Positions 893 through 59,819 of a stretch of DNA of 64,000 nt are shown in pieces. Position 1 is the stretch's first letter. Each line of letters begins with the position of its first letter. The stretch comes from Anaerotignum sp. (GTDB lineage: Bacteria > Bacillota > Clostridia > Lachnospirales > Anaerotignaceae). The stretch spans positions 16,526 through 80,525 of the forward strand of contig JAZQTP010000045.1 of the NCBI GenBank assembly GCA_045630845.1, read 5' to 3'. The notes beneath the pieces were generated by a model, which saw only the letters and a list, made by a program, of their open reading frames with translations, did not search any database and was not told the DNA's origin. The position numbers were made by a program, and so were the translations under genes.

Positions 893-898
893 GAGGAA

Positions 899-33010: not shown

Positions 33011-34633
33011 TTATTTTTTTCTGCCGTATGCTTTTTCTTTTTTTGCAATTTCGATATGCACTTTTTTTCCTTTGATTTTTGCGTTTTTCATTCCGTACAG
33101 AATATCTCTGACATATTCAGAGGGTACATCAACAAAGGTATAGTCGTCATAAAGGTCGATGGCGCCGAGGGTTTTTCCGGGAACGCCGGCTTCGTTGGCA
33201 ATCGCACCGACAATATCCTTTGCGCGAATCTTATTTTTCTTGCCTGCATTGATAAACAGGCGAACCATAGATTCTCCTTCGCCGCCATAAAATTCTGTGC
33301 CGTTAAAGTTAATGTCTTCGATGGCATCAATATCATCAGCAATTGCATCAGCCAGATGATTTTTCAAAAGGGCAGCGGCAATATCAATGCTGGTATATTC
33401 TTCATCCATCAGACGGTCAACCATGTGGATATATTTTGTCAGATGACCTTCCTCGATGATGCCTTTTATTTTTTCAAGGAAGAAGCGTGTTTTCAGTTCC
33501 TCCACATCACTGAGGGTAGGCAGCTTCTGCTGCAGAATTTTTGTCTTGGTATAGCGCATGATGTCACGCAGCTTATAAATCTCCTTGCCAACGCAGAAGG
33601 TGAAGGCTTTGCCGCTTTTGCCGGCACGACCGGTTCTGCCGATACGATGCACATAATATTCTTCATCCTGAGGCACATCGTAGTTGAAAACAATATCAAT
33701 GTCATCAATATCCAGACCTCTTGCCGCTACATCTGTGGCAACCAGAACTTCAATAGTACCATTGCGGAATTTCTGCATGACCTTATCCCGCTGGGGCTGC
33801 TTCAGGTCGCCGTGCAGACCTTCTGCAAAATAGCCGCGCCCCTGTAGCATTTCCACCAGATCATCCACTCTTTTTTTGGTGTTGCAGAAAACCATAGCAA
33901 GGTTAGGGTCATATACATCCATGATGCGGCACAGCGCATCCAGCTTGGATTTTTCCTTTACATCGAAATAATACTGTTCAATACTGGGAACAGTCAGTTC
34001 CTTCCGCACGATTTTAATAAATTCGGGATCTCTCTGGAAGCGTTTGGTGATGTCCAGAATTTCAGGGGAAAGTGTTGCAGAAAAAAGCAGTGTCTGATGA
34101 TCCTCGGGGATTTTTACCAGAATGGTTTCAATATCTTCTCTGAAGCCCATATCCAGCATTTCATCCGCCTCATCCAGAATCATCATCTGAACGGTTTCAG
34201 CCTTGATGGTTCTTCTTCTCATATGGTCCATCACACGACCGGGCGTGCCAATAACAACCTGAGCGCCTTTTTTCAAAGCAGCAATCTGTCTGTCGATGGG
34301 CTGTCCGCCATAGATAGGCAGTACACGAATATTATCCTTATATTTCAGCAGCTTGCGAAATTCCTCTGATACCTGAATTGCAAGCTCTCTGGTAGGGCAG
34401 AGAATCATCGCCTGCAGGCGTCTGTCATCGGGATCAATGCGTTCCAGACAAGGGATACCGAAGGCTGCTGTTTTGCCTGTACCGGTCTGGGACTGCCCGA
34501 TAATATCTTTTCCCTCCAGAATAACAGGGATTGCCTGCGATTGGATTGGTGTAGCTTCTTCAAAGCCCATATCCAATACGGCACGAAGGATTTCGTTAGA
34601 GATGTTCATTTCTTCAAACTTAATGTGTTCCAT
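33011..34633 (-). CDS. DEAD-box ATP-dependent RNA helicase (CshA/DeaD-like, with DbpA-type C-terminal RNA-binding domain)
   Basis: Q-motif/Walker A GQSQTGTGKT, plus DEAD (LDEADEML), SAT and HRIGRTGRAG. A leader of about 300 nt lies upstream, as is common for cold-shock helicases. Confidence 0.9.
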   Translation of the reverse strand: MEHIKFEEMNISNEILRAVLDMGFEEATPIQSQAIPVILEGKDIIGQSQTGTGKTAAFGIPCLERIDPDDRRLQAMILCPTRELAIQVSEEFRKLLKYKDNIRVLPIYGGQPIDRQIAALKKGAQVVIGTPGRVMDHMRRRTIKAETVQMMILDEADEMLDMGFREDIETILVKIPEDHQTLLFSATLSPEILDITKRFQRDPEFIKIVRKELTVPSIEQYYFDVKEKSKLDALCRIMDVYDPNLAMVFCNTKKRVDDLVEMLQGRGYFAEGLHGDLKQPQRDKVMQKFRNGTIEVLVATDVAARGLDIDDIDIVFNYDVPQDEEYYVHRIGRTGRAGKSGKAFTFCVGKEIYKLRDIMRYTKTKILQQKLPTLSDVEELKTRFFLEKIKGIIEEGHLTKYIHMVDRLMDEEYTSIDIAAALLKNHLADAIADDIDAIEDINFNGTEFYGGEGESMVRLFINAGKKNKIRAKDIVGAIANEAGVPGKTLGAIDLYDDYTFVDVPSEYVRDILYGMKNAKIKGKKVHIEIAKKEKAYGRKK

Positions 34634-34923
34634 GGTGTTTTCCTTTCTTTTCTTCGGATTTTTCAGTATAAGCCGAAGAAAGAATACGAAAACAACCCGT
34701 TTTCACGAAAATCCGTGAACGCAAATCGTCATGCCTTTTTGTCAGGCTTCTTCGGCTTTGTCAGTGCTTTCGCAATAAGATATATCTGCGGTGTTAGTAT
34801 GCACAGAATATCTGGAAATTCCCGTTAAAGCACTTGTCTGCGGAAAAAAGCCGCAGATATTCATCATAACAGCTATAGAGGAAAAAAGCAAGGAAAAGAC
34901 TGGAGAAGGGATAAGGAATGTGG

Positions 34924-34952
34924 GTATATTTTCTCTTTAGATAGAGATACTA
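34924..34952 (+). promoter_or_regulatory. possible forespore sigma-G/sigma-F-type promoter of spoVA
   Basis: GTATA (34924-34928), 17-nt spacer, GATACTA (34946-34952). Compared with the GHATR-N17/18-CAHWHTA consensus recalled from B. subtilis there is one mismatch. Confidence 0.35.
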
Positions 34953-34979
34953 ACGAAAAACAAGCGGGAGGTGCTTGCT

Positions 34980-35318
34980 TTGGATACATCAAAAAAAGGA
35001 AAGGCCGTCTATAGTGAGATGGTGAAGCAGCTTTCTCCGAATAGCCCTCTTTTGGGAAATTGTATCAAAGCTTTTTTTTCGGGCGGAGCAATCTGCACGC
35101 TGGGGCAGATTTTACTGGAATGGTATACAGGAAGCGGACTCAATCAGAAAGAGGCGGCGATGGGGGTATCTATTACATTGATTGCCTTATCTGCACTGCT
35201 GACGGCATTGGGGCTATACGAAAAAATGGGGAAGCACTGCGGGGCAGGGACAATTGTACCTATCACGGGCTTTGCCAATTCCGTGGTTTCGCCTGCCATT
35301 GAATTTAAAAAAGACTAG
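34980..35318 (+). CDS. spoVAC: stage V sporulation protein AC, 3'-truncated (interrupted by the mobile element)
   Basis: ...SPNSPLLGNCIKAFFSGGAICTLGQ...GAGTIVPITGFANSVVSPAIEFKKD-stop aligns from memory with SpoVAC up to the GFANS block, but stops about 35 aa early. A TTG at 34980 sits 9 nt after GGGAGG. The ORF-track GTG at 34971 abuts the RBS. Confidence 0.8.
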   Translation: MDTSKKGKAVYSEMVKQLSPNSPLLGNCIKAFFSGGAICTLGQILLEWYTGSGLNQKEAAMGVSITLIALSALLTALGLYEKMGKHCGAGTIVPITGFANSVVSPAIEFKKD

Positions 35319-35428
35319 AAGGATATAATGGGGACAAGACAAAAACATCATAGAGAGATGTGTTGTTTTGACCACGAAACTAAAAATCTAAAGAGGAGGA
35401 ACAATAGAAAAATATAGTTATGACAGAG

Positions 35429-35455
35429 AAGCATCTTCGGATGCTTTTTTGTTTT
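35429..35455 (+). terminator. intrinsic terminator just inside the element's left end
   Basis: aagcatc-ttcg-gatgctt hairpin followed by ttttttgtttt. It would block read-through from spoVA. Confidence 0.7.
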
Positions 35456-35484
35456 GAGAAAAATATGGAAAGGGAGGGTTTAAT

Positions 35485-36600
35485 ATGAGTTATCAATTAG
35501 AAATCAAACAGTTATTGAAATTTCGTCATTGCCGGATATACAGAAGATTTATAAGGGAATTAATGAGAGATATGGACTTAAAAACAAAAGGTACTTCATA
35601 TCTCTTTTTTTATGTCATTCTTTGTTCCTATGCGAACTTTAGAACTTCATATGTAAGGATCGAGTCCAACTATTTCACAGTATATCCTGGGCACTGGGTA
35701 TGTAGGGTAAATGATATTACAGAATGGTTCAGATTAAAGACAAAAAAGAAGACATTAGAAGTATTAGATGTTTTGGTTGAAAAGAATCTGATCAGCTATA
35801 AGCTGCATCACAATGATAAAATCATCAACTTCAAAATAAAGGGATGGAAAGCCAGCAATATGGTGCTGGAGTATAATGCTCCTTGTCAGAAGGAAGATGG
35901 TTTTTTCTTCTTTCCTATCATCCATGCGCTAAAACTCGTAAGAGGCTGTAAATGCTCTGAAGCGGATGTTTTGATAGATATTTGGCTTAATACTATTTTG
36001 AACGATCTGGAGGTCACAGGTTCCCTCCTGGGGCCTATTGCATACTTCAGGGGCATCAGGGAATCTGCTTTGGTAAGCAATTCTGAACTAGCAGCAAGAT
36101 GGGGGATTTCCAGAACGACTGTTTTTAGAGTTCTTAAGAAATTACAGGAGAAAGAATATATTGATGTGATTCATTTTACAGGGGCATTAGGATCAGTGAT
36201 CTACACAAAAAATTATATGCAGACAATGTTTGATGTTGAGGAGTTATATATTGACAGGGAAGAAGTAGTTGCGGTTTTTGAAACAACGGAACGACTGCAG
36301 CCCCAGTCTATGGATTCTTCAGTTATTCTTACTGTTAAAGAACTTTCTGATGATTATGTTGCCGGTTCAAAAGAAGAATTTATTGGTTCAAAAGCGGAGG
36401 GTAGACGACTGGTATCCAAAGTGCGTGAATTGCTGATGAATCAAGGCTTTTCTGAACTTTCAGATGCCTCTGCTATATATAAGTTATCTCCGTTATCTTT
36501 AGACTGCAAGAGAGATATTAAGTCTTATATATTAACTATAGCAATCCACAAAAAAGAACTGTACTTTGAGGTTTGCATCAGGGAGTTGGATGACGGCTGA
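35485..36600 (+). CDS. hypothetical DNA-binding protein (371 aa) with winged-helix/HTH segments
   Basis: SNSELAARWGISRTTVFRVLKKLQEKEYI is a clear HTH. GGGAGGG RBS. Its role (replication or regulation) is unknown. Confidence 0.55.
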   Translation: MSYQLEIKQLLKFRHCRIYRRFIRELMRDMDLKTKGTSYLFFYVILCSYANFRTSYVRIESNYFTVYPGHWVCRVNDITEWFRLKTKKKTLEVLDVLVEKNLISYKLHHNDKIINFKIKGWKASNMVLEYNAPCQKEDGFFFFPIIHALKLVRGCKCSEADVLIDIWLNTILNDLEVTGSLLGPIAYFRGIRESALVSNSELAARWGISRTTVFRVLKKLQEKEYIDVIHFTGALGSVIYTKNYMQTMFDVEELYIDREEVVAVFETTERLQPQSMDSSVILTVKELSDDYVAGSKEEFIGSKAEGRRLVSKVRELLMNQGFSELSDASAIYKLSPLSLDCKRDIKSYILTIAIHKKELYFEVCIRELDDG

Positions 36601-37150: not shown

Positions 37151-37326
37151 GAAAATGTCACAGAATTGGCACCGGACTGCCAAGAATTGGCACTGGTATT
37201 CCGTATCTTTGGCATTTGGGTTGTGGTAAAATGATAGTAGCTAAAAGTGGCAAAATAATATGAGAATGGGCTGCACTTGATTTTATGATCGGGTGTTTTT
37301 TTATGCCCAGATTTAGGAGGTAAGTG

Positions 37327-37692
37327 ATGAATAAAAGATTGAAAGAAGAATTTTCTGCTCGCTTGGCTCAGGCTGGGCACTTAACGTTTTGTACGGTAAC
37401 GATGTTGGCATACATGGCTAAACCAGTCTATGCCAATGTGACGATTTGGGAGAAAGCAACGGAAATCATGTCTGATCTATATGGAGAAATCGTTGCGATT
37501 TCTACCATTGCTGCTGTTGTGACTGCTGCGATTGCGCTATTGATGATGAACTTTTCCCGTAGTGGCAGAACAGTAGATGAATCCAGAGCATGGCTGAAGC
37601 GCATTATTATCACTTGGGCAATTATCAATGGTTTGGGCTTTATCATGTCCTATATCACACCATTTTTCTCCGGTGGTCAGTGGACACCTTGA
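37327..37692 (+). CDS. VirB2/TrbC-like small membrane protein (putative T4SS pilin-like subunit)
   Basis: Signal-like N-terminus ending PVYA, then two hydrophobic helices (IVAISTIAAVVTAAIALLMM and IIITWAIINGLGFIM). ATG at 37327, 6 nt after AGGAGG. Confidence 0.45.
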   Translation: MNKRLKEEFSARLAQAGHLTFCTVTMLAYMAKPVYANVTIWEKATEIMSDLYGEIVAISTIAAVVTAAIALLMMNFSRSGRTVDESRAWLKRIIITWAIINGLGFIMSYITPFFSGGQWTP

Positions 37693-40894: not shown

Positions 40895-42418
40895 ATGGAT
40901 AATGATATGCGTAGGGCGGTAAAGACAGCAGCGATCATTCGCTATGGCGTCACAGGCCCGATTGCTGCTATGGATATGGCATGGCAGCAGAAGCATAACA
41001 TTGTAAAGGTCACATTAAGTCTTGGATTTTTACTGGTTTTGCCGGTACTTTTTTTGTGTATGCTGCCGTCTTTTATATTCGGCAGTTTTCAGCTTACGAC
41101 CGCCTGGAATGATAATGCTGTTCTCATGCAGAACATCCAGTATTATCAGACTGCGGTATGGTCTGTGATAGAGGAAGCCCATGATGATTTGCTTGAGGAA
41201 TTACAGAGCGAAGCAGAAGAGAATGAGGAGATCACAATCCTTGATGACTTTAACTACAGCTCTGTAAATACAACACTGATTTTATGTCAGTATTCTGCGG
41301 CAATGGGAACGGATGAGATCGATGTGGAGGATATTGTTTCAGTTATTTCAGCTCATAGTGCATTTTTATTTTCAAGTTCGAAAAGTGGCGCCAATACATA
41401 TCGCATTCGTTATGTCGGGGACGACTATTTCGCAGACCATATTTTTAAATTGACAGAAGAACAGAAGGAACTGGCAGAGATGTATGCCTCCAATCTGGAA
41501 CTGTTTTTATACGGCAGCAGGTTTGGCAGTGTATCAGCTCAGGTCAGTGAAGATGTTTTGAAATATAAAGACTTGGTAGAGAAATATGCCCAGAAGTACG
41601 GGATTTCGCATTTTGTTGATGTGATCAATGCCGTTATGATGGCTGAAAGCGGAGGACGGGGGCCTGATGTTATGCAGGCCAGTGAATGTCCTTATAACAA
41701 GAAATACCCCAATGAACCAAATGGTATCACTGACCCGGAGTATTCCATTGAAGTTGGGGTACATTACCTGTCGGATTGTCTGAAAGCTGCAGGCTGTACT
41801 TCTCCCAGTCAGACAGAGAAACTGAGTTTGGCATTGCAAGGATATAACTATGGGAATGGTTATATTTCCTGGGCAATAGAAAAAGATGGCGGATATACAG
41901 AAGCCAATGCACAGGAATTTTCCAAAATGATGCAAAAGAAACTGGGCTGGAGTGGATACGGTAATCCGAAATATGTCAGTGCAGTATTCAAATACTTAGT
42001 ATTCTCTGGAAATGGTATCTGGGGGTCTCCTTTTGTCGGGAAGAATTGGAATAATGCTGTTTCTTCAGAGTTTGGCTGGAGAACAGATCCATTAAACGGT
42101 AGTAAAGCTTTTCATGAAGGATTGGACATTGCGTATCCAACTGGTACAGAAATCAATGCGATTTCCGGTGGGGTTGTGACTTCCGTTGTTTATTCAAAAA
42201 AAGGGTATGGTCATCATGTCAGAGTGGATTGTGGAGATGGTGTAACAGTATTGTATGCCCATTGCAGTGATATTTTTGTAGTGAAAGGACAGAGTATTAC
42301 TGCGGGACAGGTTATTGCAGAAGTAGGCGCAACAGGGCGTGTGACAGGTGCACATCTGCATCTGGGTGTATTAGTCAATGGGGAAGAAGTGAATCCAAGG
42401 GAGTATATCAGTTCATAA
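40895..42418 (+). CDS. T4SS cell-wall hydrolase (lysozyme-like domain + M23 LytM peptidase; CwlT/TcpG analogue)
   Basis: MMAESGGRGPDVMQASECPYN (lysozyme-like family) and FHEGLDIAYPTGT...GHHVRV...GAHLHLGV (M23 metal ligands). N-terminal TM anchor. Confidence 0.8.
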   Translation: MDNDMRRAVKTAAIIRYGVTGPIAAMDMAWQQKHNIVKVTLSLGFLLVLPVLFLCMLPSFIFGSFQLTTAWNDNAVLMQNIQYYQTAVWSVIEEAHDDLLEELQSEAEENEEITILDDFNYSSVNTTLILCQYSAAMGTDEIDVEDIVSVISAHSAFLFSSSKSGANTYRIRYVGDDYFADHIFKLTEEQKELAEMYASNLELFLYGSRFGSVSAQVSEDVLKYKDLVEKYAQKYGISHFVDVINAVMMAESGGRGPDVMQASECPYNKKYPNEPNGITDPEYSIEVGVHYLSDCLKAAGCTSPSQTEKLSLALQGYNYGNGYISWAIEKDGGYTEANAQEFSKMMQKKLGWSGYGNPKYVSAVFKYLVFSGNGIWGSPFVGKNWNNAVSSEFGWRTDPLNGSKAFHEGLDIAYPTGTEINAISGGVVTSVVYSKKGYGHHVRVDCGDGVTVLYAHCSDIFVVKGQSITAGQVIAEVGATGRVTGAHLHLGVLVNGEEVNPREYISS

Positions 42419-43006: not shown

Positions 43007-43082
43007 AACGGGATTATAGTTCCCGAATTCATTGCTTACGATTGATAAAATGGTGTTAATCATTCGTAAGGAGGGAGAACAT

Positions 43083-45716
43083 ATGGCAAAAAGAACGTTT
43101 ACTTGGGAAATCTTTCCCTATGATTTTCTGAAAGCAATTGCTTATGGAAAAGAAACACCTATAAGGTTAAGACCTAAAAGGGTATATGAAGAAAATGATA
43201 TTGAGTTTTTAGCTCCGCATGTTTCACGTATCTGTAATTATCCAGATGAGTATTTCGTTAGAAAATATCGAAAAGCAATTGAAGATTATTTTTTGAACGG
43301 AACAAACCATTTGATTCGTGTAGTGCAAAGGTTAGAGAAAATCAACTATGGTGGCGTTCATTTGGGTGAAAATGATGATATGCTTTTTGCATTACGCCAA
43401 AAAAGACTTACACAGACATTAGTTGATGTGTACTTAAATGAATTACGAATCACCGGAAAAATTGCTTTTGATGATGATGAAAGCATTTTCCGTCTGCCTA
43501 AAACGGTAGACCTCAGTTCTGCAGAACAAGATAAGGTTTCCTTGTATCCCTATCAGGAAAAAGCAGTTGCGGCGATGAATCAGTATTTTGTAAAAGAAGA
43601 TAAAAAATCTGCGATTTTATCAATGCCTACTGGCAGTGGTAAAACACGAACCAGCGTATATTATCTGCTGCATGATATGATCAGTCAGGGTTACCAGGTG
43701 ATTTGGTTATGCCATCGTTCAATGTTGATTGAACAGGCCGCAGAACAATTTTATAAATTTTCTCCAATTATCAAAGAGACGAATGGCTCTATGGATCAGT
43801 TTAAGATGGTCTGCATTTCAGGTAAACATGCCAGTGTTCGTGCTTTGGAAGAAGATGATAATCTTATTATTTCCAGTGTTCAGAGCTTATGCAACAATAC
43901 AGTGTATTTACCTAATATTTTGGCCGAAAAAGTTATGATTGTTGTAGACGAGGCACATCATACATTGGCTCCTTCGTATAGACGAATTATTAAAGCGGTC
44001 AGAGAGAAAAGACCTGATGCCAAGCTTTTGGGGCTTACTGCAACACCTGTTCGTTTGACAGAAAAAGCGACAGGACAGTTGATGAAAATATTTGATAACA
44101 AGATTGTGTATTCTGTTTCAATGAGCGATTTAATTGCTGATAAGACATTGGCAACACCTAAATACGTTCCTGTTGAAACGAATGTTGATATTGAAACCCT
44201 TATTAATATCGACGAACGAAAATATATTGCAAAATGGGGCGAATTTCCAGAGTCTTTGGTAATGAAAGTGGCAAAGACAAATGAACGAAATGAAGTCATT
44301 GTAAATGAGTATGTAAAAAACAAAGAAAAGTATGGCAAAACAATTATTTTTGCATTAAATGCTGTTCATTGTGACTCGTTAAATGAAGCTTTTAAGAAAA
44401 AAGGTATTCGCAGTGGCTATGTTTATACTTTAATCGGCAACGCAGAAAACCAGAAAACCATTGATCGTTTCCGTCATAATGAGGATGAAGATGGAATTGA
44501 TGTTTTGATCAATATCAATATTTTAACAGAAGGTAGTGATATTCCAGATATTCAGACTGTTTTTCTTACAAGACCTACTACCAGTGATGTTTTATTGATG
44601 CAGATGGTTGGTCGAGGCATGAGAGGCCCTGGCTGTGGTGGTACAGAAACTGTTAATATTGTAGACTTTTGCGATAAATGGACAAGTATCACTAGTTGGT
44701 TAAATCCTAAGTTCATTTGTGGAACAGAAGAGCCTGACGATGAAGAATTTGAACGAAAGCCATATAAACAGAACTTAATTCCGATGGATGCAATTCGTGA
44801 TATCGTGAAAGGAATTAGTTATAAAGGTGAATATGCGGATATTCGAGAAATGACATTACCAATTGGCTGGTTTGATGTTATTGATGAGTATGGTAATGAC
44901 ACAAAGGTTTTAGTATTTGAAAATCAATTACAGGGATATGATGCTTTCAAAGTGGATGTAGAACGCTATTTTGAGGATGATAAAGTAAGCACTCAGGATC
45001 TGATTGTAAAGTATTTCAGAGATTTTGGGATGCTTCCTGACAAAAACGATTTGAATGATATCCTGCGCTATATTAAACAGGAGAAAGAATTCCCAGAGTT
45101 ATGCAGTTTTGAAATTCGAGATAAGATTGATCCCTTTACTATAGCTGAAACGATTAAAAAGGGAGACATGACTTATAGCGATACAATGAAATGTATCAAG
45201 GATGCTTATGAACAAAATAAAGAGATAACAGAAAGTCTTTATGGCAGTTTTGAATATTACAAAAAAAGAGTATCAGACTGCTTAATGTTTCCAAAAGGGA
45301 TTGTTCCTCTTGGTACAAGATTGGAAGAAGTAGATAAAGAAGTTTTCCATCTGTCTAAAGAGCCTCTTGCAGAAAGTATTGAAGAACTTTTAGCAGAAGT
45401 GATTGAGGAAAATAAAGAGCACCTGGGACAGGATTTTATTGTGCCGGAGATTCATTGGACAGATCGTCCTCTGGGGGGCTTTTGGGGAAGATACATTCAT
45501 GACTATAATTTGATTCAAATGAATGCTCTTTTAAATTCTGAAAGCATTGATAAAGAAGTAGTCAAGTTCGTGATTTATCATGAGTGCCTGCATCAATTCT
45601 ATAAAGGACATCCCAAGGAATTTTATGAAAAAGAGCACTTGTATAAAGACTTCCAGAAGCATCAGCATTTTCTTGATTATGCACTTCGTGATTTTGATAT
45701 GGATTTTGATTATTGA
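43083..45716 (+). CDS. SF2 (DEAH) helicase with unassigned N-terminal and middle regions and a C-terminal DUF45/YgjP-like HExxH metallopeptidase motif
   Basis: Motif I MPTGSGKT, motif II VVDEAHH, motif III LTATP and motif VI QMVGRGMRG. The C-terminal VIYHECLHQFYKGHPKEFY has H-E-x-x-H-x5-H-[SP]-K-x-F-[WY] spacing, as in YgjP-type proteins. ATG at 43083 after AAGGAGGGAG. Confidence 0.75.
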   Translation: MAKRTFTWEIFPYDFLKAIAYGKETPIRLRPKRVYEENDIEFLAPHVSRICNYPDEYFVRKYRKAIEDYFLNGTNHLIRVVQRLEKINYGGVHLGENDDMLFALRQKRLTQTLVDVYLNELRITGKIAFDDDESIFRLPKTVDLSSAEQDKVSLYPYQEKAVAAMNQYFVKEDKKSAILSMPTGSGKTRTSVYYLLHDMISQGYQVIWLCHRSMLIEQAAEQFYKFSPIIKETNGSMDQFKMVCISGKHASVRALEEDDNLIISSVQSLCNNTVYLPNILAEKVMIVVDEAHHTLAPSYRRIIKAVREKRPDAKLLGLTATPVRLTEKATGQLMKIFDNKIVYSVSMSDLIADKTLATPKYVPVETNVDIETLINIDERKYIAKWGEFPESLVMKVAKTNERNEVIVNEYVKNKEKYGKTIIFALNAVHCDSLNEAFKKKGIRSGYVYTLIGNAENQKTIDRFRHNEDEDGIDVLININILTEGSDIPDIQTVFLTRPTTSDVLLMQMVGRGMRGPGCGGTETVNIVDFCDKWTSITSWLNPKFICGTEEPDDEEFERKPYKQNLIPMDAIRDIVKGISYKGEYADIREMTLPIGWFDVIDEYGNDTKVLVFENQLQGYDAFKVDVERYFEDDKVSTQDLIVKYFRDFGMLPDKNDLNDILRYIKQEKEFPELCSFEIRDKIDPFTIAETIKKGDMTYSDTMKCIKDAYEQNKEITESLYGSFEYYKKRVSDCLMFPKGIVPLGTRLEEVDKEVFHLSKEPLAESIEELLAEVIEENKEHLGQDFIVPEIHWTDRPLGGFWGRYIHDYNLIQMNALLNSESIDKEVVKFVIYHECLHQFYKGHPKEFYEKEHLYKDFQKHQHFLDYALRDFDMDFDY

Positions 45717-46834: not shown

Positions 46835-46978
46835 GAATAAAGATGGATATTATGTGCAATCAAAAAACGGGATAAATAATACCGGATTCAGATTTCAACT
46901 CTTGTTATTATATAGCCACAGAAGGGGAACAGAAACCCACTGGATAAGAGTTATATATAGCAATTGGAGGGATCTATT

Positions 46979-47358
46979 ATGAATACACAGCGAATCACAA
47001 ATATTCATGAAGATATTGTTAAGGTACTGATTTCTAACTTGGAAAAAATCCTGGACGCGCAATTCTTACATATGAGGATTTATGTAACAGAATCGGAAAT
47101 CAGGTTCATTGTAGAACTGTTGCAGGTTATTTGGGCGATATTTCATGTTGGTGTGATGAAATCGGAGCACCAATGTTGTCTGTTCTGGTAATAAACAAAC
47201 ACGAAAATCGACCAGGAAAAGGGTTCTTTAGATTATATTCTGACTTGCATGGTATGCCGGTTAAATCTTTAGATGAAGAACTGGTTTTTGTTACAGAACT
47301 TAAGAAAGTTATGAAATATCGCAAATGGACTGAACTGAAATATTATTTAGGTATCTAG
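46979..47358 (+). pseudogene. small winged-helix-like gene split by a frameshift near an A6 run (about 47044-47049)
   Basis: Frame A reads MNTQRITNIHEDIVKVLISN.... Frame B continues GKNPGRAILTYEDLCNRIGNQVHCRTVAGYLGDISCWCDEIGAPMLSVLVINKHENRPGKGFF...LGI-stop. Joined, they give one protein of about 125 aa. Confidence 0.6.
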
Positions 47359-47406
47359 AAGTAAATGTACTTCATACATAATCTCACACTCTCTTACTCT
47401 AAAAGT

Positions 47407-47440
47407 CGGGTTGCATAATTGTTTATGCAGCTCGATTTTT
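47407..47440 (+). terminator. intrinsic terminator closing the cargo block
   Basis: 12-bp stem cgggttgcataa / ttatgcagctcg (two G-U pairs), 4-nt loop, then attttt. Confidence 0.75.
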
Positions 47441-47758
47441 AATTTATGGAGAAAAAGAAATACCAAGAATAAACTTAATTCTTTTATAATCATATTATTG
47501 TCTATTCGTAACGAATATGATAATAAAACTATATTTTTTGAAAGAAAAGGAATATAATATTATAATATATTTAAATCATAAACAGAAGATTTCAAATGTT
47601 CTGAAGAGGAGGTATTAAAGCTGCTATGAAAGATAAGAAGGAACAACGAGTTGAAAAAGCAAAAAAAGTGCGGCATTTGCTGTTCCAGTTGTAGTTACAG
47701 TTTTTAATAAAGGTAAAATTATAATTCAAAACATTAAAAGATAAATATATAAAAGATT

Positions 47759-47795
47759 AACAACCTCTTTTTAAATGAAAGAGGTTGTTTTATTT
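47759..47795 (+). terminator. intrinsic terminator immediately upstream of the VirB3-VirB4 gene
   Basis: 10-bp stem caacctcttt (47761-47770) / aaagaggttg (47778-47787) followed by ttttattt. The GAGGAG RBS of the next gene starts 4 nt later. Confidence 0.75.
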
Positions 47796-47803
47796 GCTGA
47801 GGA

Positions 47804-50644
47804 GTGGTTGTTATTACAAATAAAAGAAATGAACGAGATATATTTATAATTCCGACAAATTTTCTTAATGAAGGTTTGATTTTTGGCGGTATGTTAAAAC
47901 TAAGAAATGCAATAGAGGCTGTTGTTTTGGTAATAGGAATTACGATCCCAATACTGAAAATAACAGCCCTTTCTTTTACAGGAAAGACCATAGCATTATG
48001 CCTGACAGCATTGCCAATCGGCATTTTTGCTCTGATCGGTATTGGAGGAGAAAGCCTGACCGCATTTCTGATGAATTTCTTCCGTTTTTTTCGAAACAGA
48101 AAAGTGCGTTATCGTACTGATGCCATTCCAAAAGAGGAAAAGGTAAGAATATCTATCCTGCAGGCAGACGGGGAATGGCCGGAGGAATACGGAGAAGAAA
48201 AGCTAAAGAAGAAAAGAAAGGAGAAAAAGCGGAAATTAAATGAGCCGTTCCCCGTTGAGAAAATCGAGAACGGCATCTGTTATCTGAGAGATAAACGGTA
48301 TATCAAAATCATTGAAGTAGAACCCATCAACTTCCTTTTGCGTTCTGCGAGGGAGCAGAGAAACATTATTTACTCCTATATGTCCTATCTGAAGATCAGT
48401 CCTGTACGGATGCAGATCAAGGTGATTTCCAAAAAGGCTGATATTTCGAGCCATCTGGATAAGATACAGGAGGAAATCAAAAAGGAACAGGATGAGAGAT
48501 GTAAGATCCTGCTGATGGACTATTATAATTTGATTCGTCGTATCGGGCTGAAAGAAGCCGTAACACGGCGTTTTTTTATTGTCTTTGAGTATGAGCCTAT
48601 CCCCGGCGGCAGTAAGAAAAATGAGGAAAAGGATGCGGTCAATCAGTTGGAGATTGCAGAAAGAACGGCAAGGACATATCTCATGCAGTGCGGTAACAAT
48701 GTGGTCGAGCATGAGGATGCCAATGCGTTTATGGCAGAGGTCTTATATATGCTTTTGAATCGGAAGACCAGCACAGAGATTTCCTTTTCTGAAAGAGCTG
48801 CTGCAGAAGTCGGGAAGCATATGGCGGAAGGGGATGCCAATTTTATTCCCATATCCGCATTTATCATGCCGGAAGAGATGGATTTCAGAAAAGCAGGCTA
48901 CAGCATTATCGACGGTCTATACTACTCATATTTTATGATACCCTCTGACGGGTATAAAACACAGGTAACAGCAGGATGGCTTTCCTTACTGGTCAACGCA
49001 GGGGAAGGCATTGATGTAGATATCTTTCTGAGTAAGGAACCGAAGGAAAAAGTACAGTTCCAGTTAGGCAGACAGATCCGTATCAATCGCTCCAAAATGA
49101 AGGAAACGTCGGATACCAATACGGATTTTGATGACATTGATTCTGCAGTTCGGTCCGGGTATTACCTGAAGGATGGACTGGCGAATAACCAGGACTTTTA
49201 CTACATCAACACCCTTATCACCATTACGGCAGATAGTCCCGAAGAACTGGAATGGCGTACCAATGAGATGAAAAAACTGATGTTATCTCAGGATCTGCTA
49301 CTGAAGCCCTGTTATTTCCGTCAGGACTTAGCCTTTGCGTCGGTTCTGCCGTTGAATAAGCTCCACAAGAGCATATATGAACTAAGTAGGCGAAATGCTT
49401 TAACTACAGGTGCAGCGAGCTGCTATCCTTATGTCAGTTTTGAAATGAGTGATGATAACGGTATCCTGCTGGGGGTCAATAAGTACAATAACTCACTTAT
49501 CATCGTGGATATCTTCAATTCCAAGATATATAAGAATGCCAATATGGTACTGCTTGGAACTTCTGGCGCTGGGAAGACTTTTACCATGCAGCTGATGGCA
49601 CTGAGACTTAGAGAAAAGAATATCCAAACCTTTATTCTGGCACCTCTGAAAGGGCATGAGTTCCGTAGAGCCTGTCATAACATTGGTGGAGAGTTTATTC
49701 AGATATCGCCTGCGTCCAAAAACTGCATTAATATCATGGAAATCAGAAAAACAGACCGTACAGCGAGTATGCAGTTGGATGGAGATGCTAATGAACGTTC
49801 TGAATTATCAGCAAAGATTCAGCGTCTTCATATCTTCTTTTCACTATTGATACCAGATATGACTCATGAGGAACGGCAGCTTTTGGATGAGGCGATGATT
49901 AAGACATACACTGAAAAAGGTATCACCCACCAGAATGAGTCCTTATATGAGCCTACAGGTGCTTATAAACCTATGCCGATATTAGGGGATCTTCATAAAG
50001 TTCTGATAGAAAATATTGAAACGAAGCGAATGGCTAATATTTTAAACCGTTTAGTCAATGGCTCTGCCAGTACTTTCAACCAACAGACAAATGTAAAACT
50101 GGATAATAAGTACATCGTTCTGGATATTTCAGAACTGACAGGTGACCTTCTGACAGTTGGGATGTTTCTTGCGTTGGATTATGTCTGGGATAAAGCGAAA
50201 GAGGATAGAACGCAGGAAAAAGCCATCTTTATCGATGAAGTTTGGCAGCTCATAGGTGCATCCAGTAACCGATTGGCTGCAGAGTTTGTACTGGAAATCT
50301 TCAAAATCATTCGTGGTTATGGCGGTGCTGCCATCTGTGCCACACAGGATATCAATGACTTTTTGGCATTGGACGACGGGAAATATGGCAAGGGCATCAT
50401 CAATAACAGTAAGACGAAAATCGTACTGAATTTGGAGGATGAAGAAGCGCAGAGAGTGCAGAGCATCTTGAATCTAAGTGATACAGAAATTATGAATATC
50501 ACACACTTTGCTCGCGGGAATGGCTTAATTCTCACCAATAACAATAATGTTACAGTGGAGTTTAAGGCATCACAGCTGGAAACGGAAATGATCACGACCG
50601 ACAGAGAACAGTTGAAAGAGATTATACGCAATAAAAACGCATAG
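47804..50644 (+). CDS. VirB4-family conjugation ATPase fused to an N-terminal VirB3/PrgI-like two-TM segment
   Basis: Walker A LLGTSGAGKT and Walker B IFIDEVWQL. The N-terminal 110 aa carry two hydrophobic helices (AIEAVVLVIGITIPILKI and IALCLTALPIGIFALIGIG). The start codon is ambiguous: a GTG overlapping the RBS, or an ATT at 47813. Confidence 0.85.
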   Translation: MVVITNKRNERDIFIIPTNFLNEGLIFGGMLKLRNAIEAVVLVIGITIPILKITALSFTGKTIALCLTALPIGIFALIGIGGESLTAFLMNFFRFFRNRKVRYRTDAIPKEEKVRISILQADGEWPEEYGEEKLKKKRKEKKRKLNEPFPVEKIENGICYLRDKRYIKIIEVEPINFLLRSAREQRNIIYSYMSYLKISPVRMQIKVISKKADISSHLDKIQEEIKKEQDERCKILLMDYYNLIRRIGLKEAVTRRFFIVFEYEPIPGGSKKNEEKDAVNQLEIAERTARTYLMQCGNNVVEHEDANAFMAEVLYMLLNRKTSTEISFSERAAAEVGKHMAEGDANFIPISAFIMPEEMDFRKAGYSIIDGLYYSYFMIPSDGYKTQVTAGWLSLLVNAGEGIDVDIFLSKEPKEKVQFQLGRQIRINRSKMKETSDTNTDFDDIDSAVRSGYYLKDGLANNQDFYYINTLITITADSPEELEWRTNEMKKLMLSQDLLLKPCYFRQDLAFASVLPLNKLHKSIYELSRRNALTTGAASCYPYVSFEMSDDNGILLGVNKYNNSLIIVDIFNSKIYKNANMVLLGTSGAGKTFTMQLMALRLREKNIQTFILAPLKGHEFRRACHNIGGEFIQISPASKNCINIMEIRKTDRTASMQLDGDANERSELSAKIQRLHIFFSLLIPDMTHEERQLLDEAMIKTYTEKGITHQNESLYEPTGAYKPMPILGDLHKVLIENIETKRMANILNRLVNGSASTFNQQTNVKLDNKYIVLDISELTGDLLTVGMFLALDYVWDKAKEDRTQEKAIFIDEVWQLIGASSNRLAAEFVLEIFKIIRGYGGAAICATQDINDFLALDDGKYGKGIINNSKTKIVLNLEDEEAQRVQSILNLSDTEIMNITHFARGNGLILTNNNNVTVEFKASQLETEMITTDREQLKEIIRNKNA

Positions 50645-50723: not shown

Positions 50724-51260
50724 ATGAGAAAGAAGGGATTGCTGATGGTCGATATGAAAAATCAGAGTTTTACTTTGGAGGAAAAAATATTTGAACTGGT
50801 GTCTGAATATGGCGCCTTAAAAGCAGAGCAGGTCAAGCGATATTTTGATATTGACGAGGAAAAACTGGAAAAAATGGCTGTAAGGCTTATGAAAAAAGGA
50901 AGAATGAAGTATGACAGGAAAAATGGTTATCTTAGGATGCTTACCCAGAAGGAATATGATGATAACCTTATCAGAAGTTTCTGGCTTGTCATTGATCTGA
51001 AAGAACCGGTTGAATATCATGGTGCCGGTAAATATCCCTTATATATTGCTATGTATGCAGATGGAAAGGCATACGAGATCTATTGTTGTAAAAAGGGTGA
51101 TGAATTTACCCTGAACCATGTGGTCAGTATGCTGAAGGAACAGGCTGATGGAAAGGTGTTGATCGTAATAGAAGATATGGAGCAGATGCAGCAGTTAAAC
51201 CTTGGAAACTGTACATATTGTATGGTGGATGAAGATGGGCAGGTGAAGTATTTTGAGTGA
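50724..51260 (+). CDS. hypothetical ICE protein with an N-terminal winged-helix-like segment (178 aa)
   Basis: Co-directional ORF. An alternative start at 50745 follows GAAGGGA. No catalytic motif. Confidence 0.5.
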   Translation: MRKKGLLMVDMKNQSFTLEEKIFELVSEYGALKAEQVKRYFDIDEEKLEKMAVRLMKKGRMKYDRKNGYLRMLTQKEYDDNLIRSFWLVIDLKEPVEYHGAGKYPLYIAMYADGKAYEIYCCKKGDEFTLNHVVSMLKEQADGKVLIVIEDMEQMQQLNLGNCTYCMVDEDGQVKYFE

Positions 51261-51891
51261 TGTTTTGTTTTATCAGCAGTTGGATCGTTTAAAATATGAT
51301 GTATCCCGGCTGCAAAATACGATTACGGACTATGAACTTACTGATTCTTCGAAGTATCCGGAAAATTTCGAGAAAGTTGGATTGGATGTAGCAATGCAGG
51401 CAGAAGCAGTAGCGTGCACTACAAGGAGCATTGTCAGTAGTTTTATGACGAATGGCAGAACACAGTTGATCCATGATGTTGCGAAAATGCAGGGTATCAG
51501 GATAGAGGAAAATAAGCTGGGTTACGAAATCATCATGCCTTCTTTGATGAAAAAAAGAAGTGGGAAACATAGTGTGATGTTTTTACTGGAACCGCTATCC
51601 TATGCATTGAAGCGTTTTGCAAATACGCATTCTATTGATCGTATGAGTCATGCGGTAATCTGGTTTATTTATGAATATGCGGAAGATGTGCCTATGTGTC
51701 AAATTCGGGATTATGACAATATCGAAGCAAAAGAGGTCCTGGATTTGATCAATACCCATTTTCTTGTGGATGACGGAGGACGATATTGTGAACTGCATTA
51801 CAGCATAAAACGAGGCAAAAGGAACCGAACAAGGGTCGTAATCAGTGAGGACATAGGTCTATTTCTGTGTTCAGAATCAGAAAAAATTTGA
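51253..51891 (+). CDS. hypothetical ICE protein (212 aa) with a possible RusA-like acidic motif
   Basis: IRDYDNIEAKEVLDLINTHFLVDDGG loosely resembles the D-x-D-N...K...D...DD core of RusA resolvases. This is tentative. TTG start overlapping the upstream stop. Confidence 0.45.
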   Translation: MSDVLFYQQLDRLKYDVSRLQNTITDYELTDSSKYPENFEKVGLDVAMQAEAVACTTRSIVSSFMTNGRTQLIHDVAKMQGIRIEENKLGYEIIMPSLMKKRSGKHSVMFLLEPLSYALKRFANTHSIDRMSHAVIWFIYEYAEDVPMCQIRDYDNIEAKEVLDLINTHFLVDDGGRYCELHYSIKRGKRNRTRVVISEDIGLFLCSESEKI

Positions 51892-52056: not shown

Positions 52057-53115
52057 GTGTTGTCTTTGATTGGAATGTCAGGAGAATGCTCAGGGGAAGC
52101 ATTGTCTCTTTTGCTGCCGCAGGAGAGTTATAAGAAAAGGGTAATAAAAAAGCTGATGATGGATAATCTGATTACGAAAAGGCAAAAAGATGGTGTGGTC
52201 GGTTATCGGCTGATGTATAACAGTAAAAAATATTTATTGCAGACTTCAGAGGATTCGTTATCTTTTTATCTGGCAGAAGGTGCGGATTTTTCTATGCGGA
52301 AATCAACGCCGACACAAAGGATGCGGCAGCATCGAATTTCGGAGACCATTGTAATGATGGAGAAAGCAGGAATCGTGCTGGATAGGGCGATAAAACCTCC
52401 GCTATTTGAAGAAAAACCATTGCAGACTGACGAGTATTCGCAGTCTTTTTTTTATCATCCAAAGGAAGTGAAGGCACAGTCTGACCTGACAAGGAAAATC
52501 ATCAGTTCCAGAATGACAGGTGTATGGCTTACCCCTTCCGCAGTCTGGCTTTGCTATAATATTGGCTCCCAATTGCCGAATTGGTTTGAAAATGTAGAGG
52601 ACAGGGCAGAAGCCTTGATCCGTTCTATGCTGCGGGAAAAAGATATCCCATTTGATGATGCCGGTGCGTTGTTGTTTGGGAGAAGTATGGAATGGGCGAA
52701 GGAATGCTTAAATGACCCCAAGACAGTGAGATACATCCTAAATTCCTCGTTCAATCAGTTCTGCTATGTACCGCTGAATGAAAAAGGGATATTGTATCTG
52801 CAATTATTGAATAAAAACGATGCTTTTACCTGTTTGCAGTCTATCCTTGCAGAAGATTTGCAGGCTGATTCGCGTGACCGTTGGATCAGTCATGACGGGT
52901 ATAACCCTGATGGACTGCCAACTTTGGTCTGTATAGACTGTGACCTGAAGCGGTTGATACGATTTATCACCCAGCTTCGGTATCAAGGACTGAAGGGTGA
53001 GGTCATCTGCTTTGATTTCCAGAAGGAGGGGATACAAGAATATTGTGAAGAAAAAGCGAAAATTTCAACTGTCGATCTGGAAACCGTCCGAAGAAAGTTC
53101 CTTTCCAGAACATAG
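52057..53115 (+). CDS. replication-relaxation (Replic_Relax)-like protein, candidate relaxase/DNA-processing protein
   Basis: An N-terminal winged-helix pattern (...YRVLSLIGMSGECSGEALSLLL...RVIKKLMMDNLITKR) sits directly upstream of the coupling protein. The frame is open from 52021, with a GGGGAGG RBS at 52011-52017, so the true start is probably upstream of the ORF-track GTG (see findings). Confidence 0.5.
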   Translation: MLSLIGMSGECSGEALSLLLPQESYKKRVIKKLMMDNLITKRQKDGVVGYRLMYNSKKYLLQTSEDSLSFYLAEGADFSMRKSTPTQRMRQHRISETIVMMEKAGIVLDRAIKPPLFEEKPLQTDEYSQSFFYHPKEVKAQSDLTRKIISSRMTGVWLTPSAVWLCYNIGSQLPNWFENVEDRAEALIRSMLREKDIPFDDAGALLFGRSMEWAKECLNDPKTVRYILNSSFNQFCYVPLNEKGILYLQLLNKNDAFTCLQSILAEDLQADSRDRWISHDGYNPDGLPTLVCIDCDLKRLIRFITQLRYQGLKGEVICFDFQKEGIQEYCEEKAKISTVDLETVRRKFLSRT

Positions 53116-53119
53116 TAGT

Positions 53120-54976
53120 ATGATCAAAACAGTAGTGCTGCTGTTGATCGCAGTCGTTCCGATCCTGTATATCAGTGGACTACTGGCACAGCTTCTGGCG
53201 AATTATCATAGCTGGCAGGCAGCCGGCGGTATGCTTGGCGATGGCACATCACCAAAACTTCCGCAGACAGGCTTTTTTCATTGCTTGTTTGCAGTCTTTT
53301 CCATTTACGGTTTAAAAGCTTTCATTGGTATCTCCGGTGCAGTCGGTATTATGTTTCTGATGGTATGGGTCAGAGATCTGGAAGATGGCAGATATTATGA
53401 CAAAGACCGAAACTTCAAGTACTCGAAAAAAGGTATATACGGCACAGCAAAGTTCTTATCCGTAAAAGAAATGCGTGAGTTTCTGGATGTGACAACCATA
53501 GAGGAAACAACGGGAACGATTTTAGGCTCTCGATGGCGGAAAGTTATCAGTATCCCGGAAGATATCTTTATGAATAAGCATATCGCGGTATATGGTGCTT
53601 CCGGAAGTATGAAATCAAGGGCCTTTGTAAGAAACATGATCTTTCAGGCAGTGGCCAGAGGGGAATGTATCGTGGTAACTGACCCCAAAAGTGAACTGTT
53701 CGAAGATATGTCCCTTTATCTGGAGGCGAATGGATATGCTGTGCGGGTCTTTAATCTGGTGCATCCGGAATGCAGTGACCGCTGGAACTGTTTGAGTATG
53801 GTCCATGGGGATGAGATCAACGCACAGGTATGTGTGGAGATCATCTTTACCAATACTGGTGATGTGGTAGATGCCAGCTTTTGGAGCAGGGGTGAAACAA
53901 ATCTGCTGAAGGCATTGATTTTGTATGTGGATCTGGAAAGAAAAACAGAAGACCGAAACATGGGTGCTGTTTATGAAATGATCCTGGAACGGACGGAACA
54001 GGACCTGGAAAATCTATTTGGTGTTCTGCCGAAATGGCATCCGGCGAAAAAGCCTTACAGTATTTACCGAAAATCCGATGCAAAAGTGCGGTCAGATATG
54101 ATGGCAGGTCTTGGGACAAGGCTGCAGGTTTTCCAAAGCCAGAAGATATGTGATGTCACAGCGGCAGACGATTTTGTTTTCTCGAGAGTTGGATGGGAAA
54201 AATGTGCCTATTTCGTGATTATGAGCGATCAGGACGGGACCTTCCGGTTTCTATCCTCTTTGTTTTTCTCGTCCCTTTTCATTGAGTCGGTGCGTTCTGC
54301 CGATGATAAAACGGAAGAGAGGACATTGCCGATCGGTGTGAATTTTATTCTGGATGAGTTTACGCAAATTGGGAGAATACCGGATTTCAATATGAAGATA
54401 TCAACGGTAAGAAGCAGGAACATCCGTATTTCGATTATTTTCCAAAGTATCCCACAGCTGGAGAATCGTTACCCGAAGAATGAATGGATCGAAATTCTGG
54501 GGAACTGCGATACGCAGATCGCCCTTGGCTGCAATGATACATTCACTGCTGAATTTATTTCTGATCGTAGTGGTGTTACTACGGTAGAGGCGGCCAATGA
54601 ATCAAGGAATCTAAGTACTTGGCGGTTCAGCGATCATACACCGGAGCATAAGGAAACGAAGTCAGAACATCCAAGAAATCTTATAGACCCCAGTGAGGTC
54701 ATGCGGATCCCGATGAATCAGGCATTGGTCATCCTTAGAACGAAAAATGTGTTTAAGGTCAAGAAGTTCGATTATACCAAGCATCCTGAAAGTAAAAAAC
54801 TGAAGAAACGGAAAGCGACGAAGTATATACCGGAGTGGCGGAAAAGTCAAGGGAAAATGGAAAATGTGGTAAAAAACGCAAAAAATGTGGTAAAAACCGT
54901 AATACCGCAGGAAGAAAAGAAGAAAGAATTCGTTGAAATATCAAAATTTGAACTGATGAGTAAGGAGGAGGAATAA
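53120..54976 (+). CDS. VirD4/TraG-type type IV coupling protein
   Basis: Two N-terminal TM helices, Walker A VYGASGSMKS and Walker B NFILDEFTQIG. ATG at 53120, 5 nt after the upstream stop. Confidence 0.85.
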   Translation: MIKTVVLLLIAVVPILYISGLLAQLLANYHSWQAAGGMLGDGTSPKLPQTGFFHCLFAVFSIYGLKAFIGISGAVGIMFLMVWVRDLEDGRYYDKDRNFKYSKKGIYGTAKFLSVKEMREFLDVTTIEETTGTILGSRWRKVISIPEDIFMNKHIAVYGASGSMKSRAFVRNMIFQAVARGECIVVTDPKSELFEDMSLYLEANGYAVRVFNLVHPECSDRWNCLSMVHGDEINAQVCVEIIFTNTGDVVDASFWSRGETNLLKALILYVDLERKTEDRNMGAVYEMILERTEQDLENLFGVLPKWHPAKKPYSIYRKSDAKVRSDMMAGLGTRLQVFQSQKICDVTAADDFVFSRVGWEKCAYFVIMSDQDGTFRFLSSLFFSSLFIESVRSADDKTEERTLPIGVNFILDEFTQIGRIPDFNMKISTVRSRNIRISIIFQSIPQLENRYPKNEWIEILGNCDTQIALGCNDTFTAEFISDRSGVTTVEAANESRNLSTWRFSDHTPEHKETKSEHPRNLIDPSEVMRIPMNQALVILRTKNVFKVKKFDYTKHPESKKLKKRKATKYIPEWRKSQGKMENVVKNAKNVVKTVIPQEEKKKEFVEISKFELMSKEEE

Positions 54977-57303: not shown

Positions 57304-57769
57304 GAAAGGTCATCAGACATTGCGGGATGAAATAGAAAAATTGAAAAAAGATACTGAAAAGAAGAAAACGAAGGGAAAAAGAAAGTTTTTGATTAAACTG
57401 ATTTTTTCTCTTCTTTTTTTGTCAGCAGGATATTTTTTAGATTTTCTGATCTATGCAGTCTATGGATTATTAGCAGCAGAGATGATGCAATGCCTGTTGG
57501 CTCGACGAAGATTTCATAAGAATAAAGAGCAGCATAAAGCACAGAAACAGATGGAACTACAGATCCGAACTGCATCAGAAACTATCCTGATCGGGTATCT
57601 CGTGATGGTAGGGATGGTGATTTCGGTCTATGGCAGTGTGCATTATATCTTGAAAATATCTATGATCAGATTTCCTGTTTGGGATTGGCTGCAGTATGGA
57701 CTTCTGCTGTTTCTGTTGTTTGAAGTGATATTGCTCCGGTACTATAAAAAAATTGATAGAAAGGTTTGA
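57293..57769 (+). CDS. hypothetical membrane protein (158 aa)
   Basis: Lys-rich N-terminus and then four hydrophobic helices. TTG start overlapping the upstream gene. Confidence 0.45.
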   Translation: MIRKKGHQTLRDEIEKLKKDTEKKKTKGKRKFLIKLIFSLLFLSAGYFLDFLIYAVYGLLAAEMMQCLLARRRFHKNKEQHKAQKQMELQIRTASETILIGYLVMVGMVISVYGSVHYILKISMIRFPVWDWLQYGLLLFLLFEVILLRYYKKIDRKV

Positions 57770-59740: not shown

Positions 59741-59819
59741 AAATTCTGTGGAGATTTTGTTGTTTTACAATTTTTCTGTACGTATAAAACAGTAGAAAGA
59801 CAAAAAAGGAGGAAGAAAA

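Follow-up and report, generated by a model that had tools for sequence, protein, structure and literature searches.

The locus and the question

A sporulation gene that ends where a conjugative element begins raises the question of how the gene was cut and what this means for the product it helps to build. This is the situation of spoVAC in the 64,000-nucleotide stretch of Anaerotignum sp. analysed here (contig JAZQTP010000045.1, positions 16,526-80,525; hereafter the window). The genes spoVAC, spoVAD and spoVAE encode the channel that loads dipicolinic acid (DPA) into the developing spore. A preliminary description of the window had left three options: a plain knock-out of a channel subunit, rescue by a second spoVA locus, or an excision logic different from that of the known mother-cell elements. 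Our evidence favours ordinary integration with gene disruption. We consider it probable that an integrative conjugative element (ICE) was integrated by site-specific serine recombination into a dedicated attachment site (attB) in spoVAC, disrupting the gene. What that description did not foresee is that the site is a dedicated and widely used target of serine recombinases, with at least 126 junctions.

Truncation of spoVAC and the left junction

The features on which the argument depends are the following.

34980-35318, plus strand: truncated spoVAC; codons 1-111 native, codon 112 changed from E to D by the junction, then a TAG supplied by the element
35313-35314, no strand assigned: GA dinucleotide, core of the left attachment site (attL) and last bases common to attB (attB of L253, L001 and L084 compared with attL of the window and L086)
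35315-64000, plus strand: left part of the ICE, at least 28.7 kb, right end beyond the window

The open reading frame (ORF) of spoVAC in the window follows a GGGAGG ribosome-binding site (34966-34971), starts with TTG at 34980 and ends with the TAG at 35316-35318, giving a product of 112 amino acids that ends in ...SPAIEFKKD. Relatives have a full SpoVAC of 148 amino acids, so that the final 36 residues are lost, very close to the 35 or so estimated beforehand. The 120 best homologues, the closest of which are Anaerotignum-like, measure 136-156 amino acids, and the Pfam SpoVAC_SpoVAEB match of the window protein is confined to profile positions 1-85 of 117. All 28 aligned relatives read on past ...EFKKEG for about 35 residues and none ends at KKD, an ending that, if shared by relatives, would have spoken against an insertion. 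Eleven of the 33 invariant columns of this alignment fall within the missing residues, and the last hydrophobic segment of SpoVAC is gone in the integrated state.

The breakpoint, at 35314/35315, is known to the nucleotide from element-free contigs of the same species. L253 matches window 34258-35314 at 98.0% identity, and L001 matches window 34866-35314 at 96.2%; in both, similarity is gone past 35314, and they read GGGGATGATACTGG..., the remainder of spoVAC, followed by spoVAD. The intact L084 reads through both spoVAD and spoVAE. Thus, spoVAC is cut short where the conjugative element begins, as had been proposed, and the comparison with element-free relatives that had been suggested defines attB. 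With a caret marking the crossover, attB is ...AAGAAAGA^GGGGATG and the attL of the window is ...AAGAAAGA^CTAGAAGG; in longer reads they are ...GAATTTAAGAAAGA^GGGGATG and ...GAATTTAA(A/G)AAAGA^CTAGAAGGATATAATGGGG. The crossover lies at a very short core of 2 bp, with no long direct repeat.

A tblastn search of the whole window found no spoVAC 3' part, no spoVAD, no spoVAE and no other SpoVAC-like sequence, in agreement with the earlier remark that neither spoVAD nor spoVAE follows. A replacement 3' end brought by the element and lying inside the window is ruled out by the same search; the ORF ends KKD-TAG one codon past the junction, which is plain disruption. By comparison, nearly all of 80 related genomes (the best 80 of 574 confirmed stretches in a SpoVAD search of genome contigs) have a 148-amino-acid spoVAC directly upstream of spoVAD and spoVAE.

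The identical attL was found in three other contigs from different samples (L085, L086 and L087), and a chimeric assembly is therefore excluded. L085 (10.5 kb, of which 6.4 kb is element) matches the window at 98.6% identity. Seven substitutions in codons 80-110, all synonymous, set the spoVAC of the window apart from every other attL or attB allele, and the same ICE must therefore occupy the same nucleotide in two spoVAC alleles. These substitutions, unique to the window within the species, are packed into 93 nt beside the junction (window 35216-35311); from the alignment, the cluster has the appearance of a recombination tract or of a separate integration into a different allele. The SpoVAC cluster at 90% identity holds both states of the gene: P0245, the window's own 112-residue protein, recorded on an 83,629-nt NCBI contig; P0247, a second 112-residue variant; and P0248, intact with 148 residues, of which 1-111 are identical to the window SpoVAC. 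A contig of a metagenome-assembled genome labelled Candidatus Epulonipiscium (L014:1-102; SpoVAD 72% identical) starts four bases after the crossover position; a strain-variable insertion at this site, interrupting the assembly, would produce such a start.

The right junction

The preliminary description proposed to look elsewhere for the missing 3' part with spoVAD and spoVAE, and we found it at the right attachment site (attR). The SpoVAD cluster contains a protein of 400 amino acids, P0243, encoded on a 143,479-nt NCBI contig; the SpoVAE protein P0371 is recorded on a contig of that length. P0243 has an N-terminal extension of 59 residues, MPLPTLKKLFFYPLLDTTG^GDDTGDGGKNVY... (in a longer read, MPLPTLKKLFFYPLLDTTG^GDDTGDGGKNVYCGR...). 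Before the caret the sequence is foreign; after it comes the spoVAC 3' fragment, out of frame and beginning exactly at the crossover as judged against L001. The foreign part back-translates to CTTGACACNACNGGN^GGGGAT, with codons CTT GAC ACN ACN GGN ^ GGG GAT. Written as CTTGACAC.AC.GG. followed by the fragment, this end has the motif of the element family described below in the same register, and its junction is assigned to the GGA class (nine loci). Read from its residues, the extension is thus best identified as the attR junction of a spoVAC insertion. Because the 3' fragment survives there, the event was an insertion and not a deletion.

A recurrent attachment site

The same junction recurs in many other mobile elements. 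Scanning IMG/VR with a SpoVAC alignment returned 12 contigs that carry only the C-terminal part of the protein, starting at residues 110-112 in 11 of them and at residue 95 in the other. A conserved element end, ...CTTGACAnnnnnnGA^RGG, is fused to SpoVAC residues 112-148 (in L120 the motif has one extra base). Upstream of the fragment lie three tandem, co-directional genes for large serine recombinases (LSRs) with Resolvase and Recombinase domains and, in two of the three genes, a Zn-ribbon; the short contig L121 shows two genes. In two of the contigs spoVAD is found downstream.

A pattern built on this junction, when tested on 132 control loci, matched 11 of the 12 true cases and nothing else. 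In metagenome contigs it matched at least 120 stretches, bringing the total to at least 126 right junctions in viral and metagenome contigs from many host species, each joined to a SpoVAC C-terminus. Among the matches listed there are 30 distinct 30-nt element ends, one of which is joined to 24 different SpoVAC C-termini. The GA before the junction is invariant in all 126 listed (AGA in 115, GGA in 9 and CGA in 2). Host flanks range from 33 to 68% GC (median 58%), with a median of 47% on the recombinase side. One nucleotide position is therefore used by independent elements in independent hosts. Also among the matches listed, 115 of the 117 displaced fragments that reach the stop codon are intact and of normal length, and two are damaged.

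LSR genes are present at every related junction with enough upstream sequence, and counting from the table of loci, 38 of the 44 with at least 5.3 kb upstream have three or more. Upstream of the LSR genes, 38 loci have a DUF6870 gene, in 36 of them about 5.1-5.4 kb from the junction. The module of DUF6870 and three tandem LSR genes is conserved in L122-L131 and in about 30 metagenome loci (e.g., L126:4585-9932). From its position, the DUF6870 protein is a candidate accessory or directionality factor. The expectation that a recombinase gene would lie at the far end of the element is thus borne out in related elements; for the window's own far end it is extrapolated from them.

Cultured phages contain no close homologue of the junction-proximal LSR, the best match being a metagenomic record with 52% identity. 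Left junctions of other family members were not found in viral contigs, either with an N-terminal SpoVAC profile or with a DNA pattern of the conserved motif, likely because only LSR-bearing ends get classed as viral. In L126 (247-3977), genes for a DUF3854 primase-like protein, a ParM-like actin and a sigma-70 region-4 protein lie beside the LSR triplet. There were no phage structural genes in the 10 kb examined of contigs labelled viral in IMG/VR, such as L126; the label may be wrong and the elements plasmid-like or mobilisable. In several high-GC hosts spoVAC has no spoVAD downstream: L125 carries a gyrA-like gene on the opposite strand there (10059-11153) and L119 a LysR regulator (8632-9075). 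As neither has spoVAD after spoVAC, the gene appears to be solitary in some lineages. A weak dyad symmetry between the left end in the window and the right-end motif of the family was seen by eye, and we draw no claim from it.

Full-text literature searches that paired spoVAC with serine recombinase, attB, prophage, ICE or integrase found this target nowhere described. In Jiang et al., "genetic islands" with spoVAC-spoVAD-spoVAEb are listed for Faecalibacterium prausnitzii and Roseburia intestinalis (PMC6907783, PMC12888040). What is new here is spoVAC as a widely used target; the element itself is of a known kind, an ICE that integrates by means of an LSR.

Relation of the window element to the family

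Two loci tie the conjugation genes of the window to spoVAC junctions with LSR genes. L144 carries, in the order of the window, a VirB4 gene (56% identical), DUF5697, DUF6100, an ORF of 400 amino acids and a type IV coupling protein (43% identical). After the coupling protein come a single LSR gene, the junction, the spoVAC 3' fragment and spoVAD. Identity of this LSR to the junction-proximal member of the triplets is 57%, as against 29% to the other two members. Since the lone LSR of L144 is its orthologue, the junction-proximal paralogue is the one that goes with spoVAC specificity. In L180, homologues of two genes from the left part of the element, a pilin (62%) and a membrane protein (58%), lie upstream of such a junction. 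Given these relatives, the window's own element presumably ends in an LSR module like theirs.

A candidate forespore-type promoter

In Bacillus subtilis and Clostridioides difficile, spoVA is a sigma-G forespore operon. The preliminary description had noted a GTATA-N17-GATACTA match upstream of the window spoVAC, and the motif stands up to a wider scan.

34924-34952, plus strand: candidate forespore-type (sigma-G/sigma-F-like) promoter GTATA-N17-GATACTA, 28 nt upstream of the spoVAC start

The general pattern GHATR-N17-SATNNTA has this single match on both strands of the whole window, with about 2.5 chance matches expected in 128 kb. Because the only match sits 28 nt upstream of the start codon, its placement is unlikely to be due to chance. 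The motif is identical in L001, and L012 and L015 carry similar ones. Comparing the corresponding region (window 34880-34982) in L002-L021, we found that most close relatives have a coding gene abutting spoVAC, and an intergenic region with a sigma-G/F-like motif is found in the window, L001, L012 and L015. To judge from these alignments, operon structure upstream of spoVAC is variable in the clade.

Small family members with a replacement 3' end

Four loci have either an intact spoVAC or several 3' fragments, with cassettes of 0.5-2.3 kb between them: L165 (oriented 1-3176), L123:5683-8116, L213 and L169:9083-9960. In L165 an intact spoVAC is followed by two more 3' copies, and in L169 the displaced copy is frameshifted. 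Such arrays suggest that small members may integrate serially, each bringing a replacement 3' end. Read from their translations, the ORFs interleaved in L165 suggest barnase-like toxins with barstar-like partners.

How the insertion is best explained

For integration by an LSR, attP, attB and the integrase suffice. We propose that the element entered spoVAC through LSR recombination at the GA in codon 112, inside the conserved coding stretch for EFKK-EG, and that this stretch would act as a dedicated attB for a large and diverse group of LSR-carrying elements of Clostridia. At the crossover, attB and the attP deduced from the junctions share GA alone, which is a signature of serine integrases. 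One or more LSR genes would lie at the far right end, pointing at the displaced spoVAC 3' fragment and spoVAD-spoVAE. The integrated element would separate spoVAD and spoVAE from the forespore-type promoter. With SpoVAC truncated and the two downstream genes cut off from the promoter, the DPA-channel operon would be off until precise excision, and loss of SpoVAC function probably follows the insertion. Precise excision by the LSR and a directionality factor, the step before conjugative transfer, would restore the gene exactly; it presumably follows the element's own activation and not the sporulation programme. Mutants of C. perfringens and C. difficile in spoVA still sporulate, but their spores contain no DPA and resist heat less well. 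The insertion therefore need not abolish sporulation, which would make the site tolerable.

Several points weigh against this explanation. The right end of the window's element is known from the protein P0243, never as DNA. That P0243 comes from the same genome as the window is no more than probable. For this element the 2-bp core is deduced through back-translation of a glycine codon (GGN). Among the ORFs of the window no relaxase was recognised, and the element continues past them. Plain disruption may not be the rule in the family, as L165 and L169 keep an intact spoVAC, and the abundance of the family suggests that the cost of insertion is somehow low.

A first alternative is that the disruption is buffered, either by a second spoVA locus or by a functional 112-residue protein, the insertion then being phenotypically silent. 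Mobile spoVA operons are known, such as the Tn1546-borne spoVA2mob mentioned in PMC6907783, and L165 and L169 do preserve an intact gene. However, the window has no second spoVAC, spoVAD or spoVAE, each related genome has a single spoVAC-spoVAD-spoVAE locus (best 80 of the 574 confirmed stretches), and a third of the invariant positions (11 of 33) are in the lost 36 residues, so that buffering seems unlikely. The truncation itself is the sole point in favour of an old deletion, in which a decayed spoVAC would merely have come to lie beside the element. The 3' fragment survives at attR from the exact crossover, nearly isogenic strains carry the intact gene, and the junction nucleotide is identical in at least 126 other cases; this reading is scarcely credible, and the existence of attR rules it out. 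The recombinase of the window's element lies outside the sequence seen, and it might in principle be a tyrosine recombinase or a transposase. At the crossover attB and attP have no more than 2-3 bp in common, with no long direct repeat, and every related junction with enough upstream sequence has LSR genes, which makes this very improbable.

The remaining alternative is that the element is a programmed intervening one, excised in the forespore or in the predivisional cell at sporulation so that spoVAC is rebuilt before sigma-G expression, and then either persisting in the spore as a circle or re-integrating at germination. In favour of this, the gene hit belongs to sporulation and has a forespore-type promoter, the family is highly successful despite that target, and some members encode ParM-like and DUF3854 primase-like proteins that could maintain an episome. 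The LSR-excised elements of sigK, spsM and gerE offer precedents (PMC4191935, PMC5595907, PMC5025042), but all documented cases are in mother-cell genes, where excision is terminal. This logic cannot apply unchanged to spoVA, a forespore operon. The normal length of 115 of 117 displaced fragments among the matches listed might count in its favour, but fragments of 37 codons stay intact by chance and, as the non-functional 37-codon copies in the L165 array are intact too, intactness is no evidence of selection. Moreover, spoVA mutants sporulate, so that repair is not obligatory. We regard programmed excision as quite unlikely. The corresponding general proposal, that spoVAC-site elements are conditional switches of a forespore gene that excise at commitment to sporulation and rebuild the DPA channel, is about as doubtful. 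Such elements would travel in the spore as episomes, or go back into the site at germination by means of the integrase alone. If true, it would be a germ-line-compatible version of the skin/SPbeta logic, and the spore might serve the element for dispersal, or the element might tune the DPA content and heat resistance of spores in the population.

Comparison with known systems

The integrated ICE resembles the streptococcal ICEs whose single or triplet serine integrases target mutT, traG, hsdM or rumA (Ambroset et al. 2016, PMC4701971); disruption of the first three is described for triplet integrases. In both, the LSR genes sit at one element end and all point at the target gene, and site-specific integration disrupts a protein-coding gene, with repeats of 2-8 bp in the streptococcal case. 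For the window ICE the likeness in LSR genes is drawn through its relatives, its own being outside the sequence seen. The external, middle and internal positions of the streptococcal triplets form distinct clades, and the single LSR of L144 likewise groups with the junction-proximal one. The systems differ in target, spoVAC being none of the four genes above, and in gene content: the window has a module of CD1110-like VirB4, DUF5697 and DUF6100, and the family has DUF6870 before the triplet.

The intervening elements skin (sigK), SPbeta (spsM), gin (gerE), vfbin and vrin are all found in mother-cell genes, and because they are excised in the terminal mother cell alone, the element stays in the spore (PMC4191935). 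One of them, gin, which is not a prophage, carries three genes for serine recombinases (PMC5595907). The spoVAC-site family shares with this type the splitting of a sporulation-gene coding sequence by an LSR element and, with gin, the number of recombinase genes. In contrast, its target is not a mother-cell gene, given forespore expression of spoVA in model species and the sigma-G/F-like promoter, and the window element is apparently a complete conjugative element.

The Listeria comK prophage, with its "active lysogeny" (Rabinovich et al. 2012, as cited in PMC4701971), is another mobile element inside a conditionally needed gene. As presented in that citation, precise excision restores comK in a cell that is not terminal, a precedent for repair without loss of the element; there, however, the element is a phage with another integrase and target, and our case is known from sequence alone. 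Elements that replace the 3' end of their target, as at tRNA genes, find a parallel in L165, L169, L123 and L213, with their intact spoVAC and displaced 3' copies, whereas the window ICE brings no replacement.

Gene content of the window

The left 35 kb of the window is ordinary chromosome, with genes for isocitrate dehydrogenase, aconitase, BofC-like, ClpC-like and RadA-like proteins, pyruvate carboxylase, a two-component system, a decarboxylase and a DEAD-box helicase. The BofC C-terminal-domain protein (9567-10100) indicates that the host carries other sporulation genes. At the junction GC content falls from about 0.44 to 0.32-0.39, in line with the AT-richer sequence noted beforehand. The ORFs from 35485 to 61070 are uniformly on the plus strand and include a VirB4-like ATPase and a coupling protein, and the more than 25 kb of co-directional type IV secretion genes described initially are thus present. 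The features of the element in the window are as follows.

35425-35455, plus strand: hairpin (35425-35450) and U-run to 35455, like an intrinsic terminator; -18.7 kcal/mol, z = -5.8
35485-36600, plus strand: first element gene, winged-helix/MarR-like helix-turn-helix protein of 371 amino acids (domain match)
37324-37692, plus strand: small membrane protein, weak VirB2/TrwL pilin-like match below the cut-off; 62% identical homologue in L180
37764-38978, plus strand: HSDR_N_2 protein (domain match)
40895-42418, plus strand: cell-wall hydrolase, lysozyme-like and peptidase M23 (domain match)
43032-45716, plus strand: ResIII/SNF2-type helicase with YgjP-like metallopeptidase domain; cargo or anti-restriction candidate
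47804-50644, plus strand: VirB4-like conjugal transfer ATPase; CD1110-family model, below its cut-off; 56% identical to the L144 ICE
50724-51891, plus strand: DUF5697 and DUF6100 genes; same pair in the same order in the L144 ICE
52997-54976, plus strand: type IV coupling protein (T4SS-DNA_transf, TraG-D_C); 43% identical to L144
54978-61070, plus strand: S1-domain, SAF-domain and P-loop proteins, sortase with SLH repeats, CAP-domain protein with SLH repeats
61144-63719, both strands: HTH_3 regulator and DUF3990 (minus), Bro-N protein (plus); the element is unfinished at the window end

The hairpin lies just inside the element, upstream of its first gene; a simple terminator scan did not list it, and folding places it almost exactly where a terminator had been proposed (35429-35455). 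After the HSDR_N protein come a large membrane protein and the lysozyme/M23 hydrolase, the latter being, with the VirB4-like ATPase and the coupling protein, one of the conjugation components recognised in the window. By their domains, the HSDR_N_2 protein and the ResIII/SNF2-YgjP fusion may be anti-restriction or defence cargo, and the genes of 54978-61070 are candidates for a surface or adhesion module. Just upstream of the VirB4-like gene there is an ORF-free gap of about 1 kb with 30% GC (46835-47803), which could hold the origin of transfer or a regulatory region; a repeat search of this AT-rich gap (46.8-47.8 kb) returned short repeats only, none of note. There is no recombinase gene among the ORFs of the window and, as no relaxase is recognisable there either, the right end must lie beyond 64000.

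Other searches for the element gave little. An Rfam scan of the window had no match, PLSDB contained no related plasmid, and a scan of viral contigs with the first element gene found none; the Bro-N protein matched unrelated phages only. A degenerate right-end pattern had no match in metagenome contigs. Exact-protein look-ups returned no record for the Bro-N protein, the CAP/SLH protein, a 69-residue ORF near the window end or P0243, and short contigs only for P0371; identity between the metagenome strains and the window is about 98.6%, so that long proteins rarely match exactly.

Implications

The family makes the rule that intervening elements occur only in mother-cell genes directly testable, and it is a source of natural LSR/attB pairs that share a conserved 2-bp core and span a wide range of hosts. 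Insertions at the spoVAC site could also explain "missing" spoVAC calls in genome surveys. The genes spoVAC, spoVAD and spoVAE determine heat resistance and dormancy of the spore and, hence, host-to-host transmission of gut Clostridia. Many of the more than 100 metagenome junctions come from human-gut assemblies, and an element family at this frequency could be a common and reversible cause of strain-level differences in spore quality.

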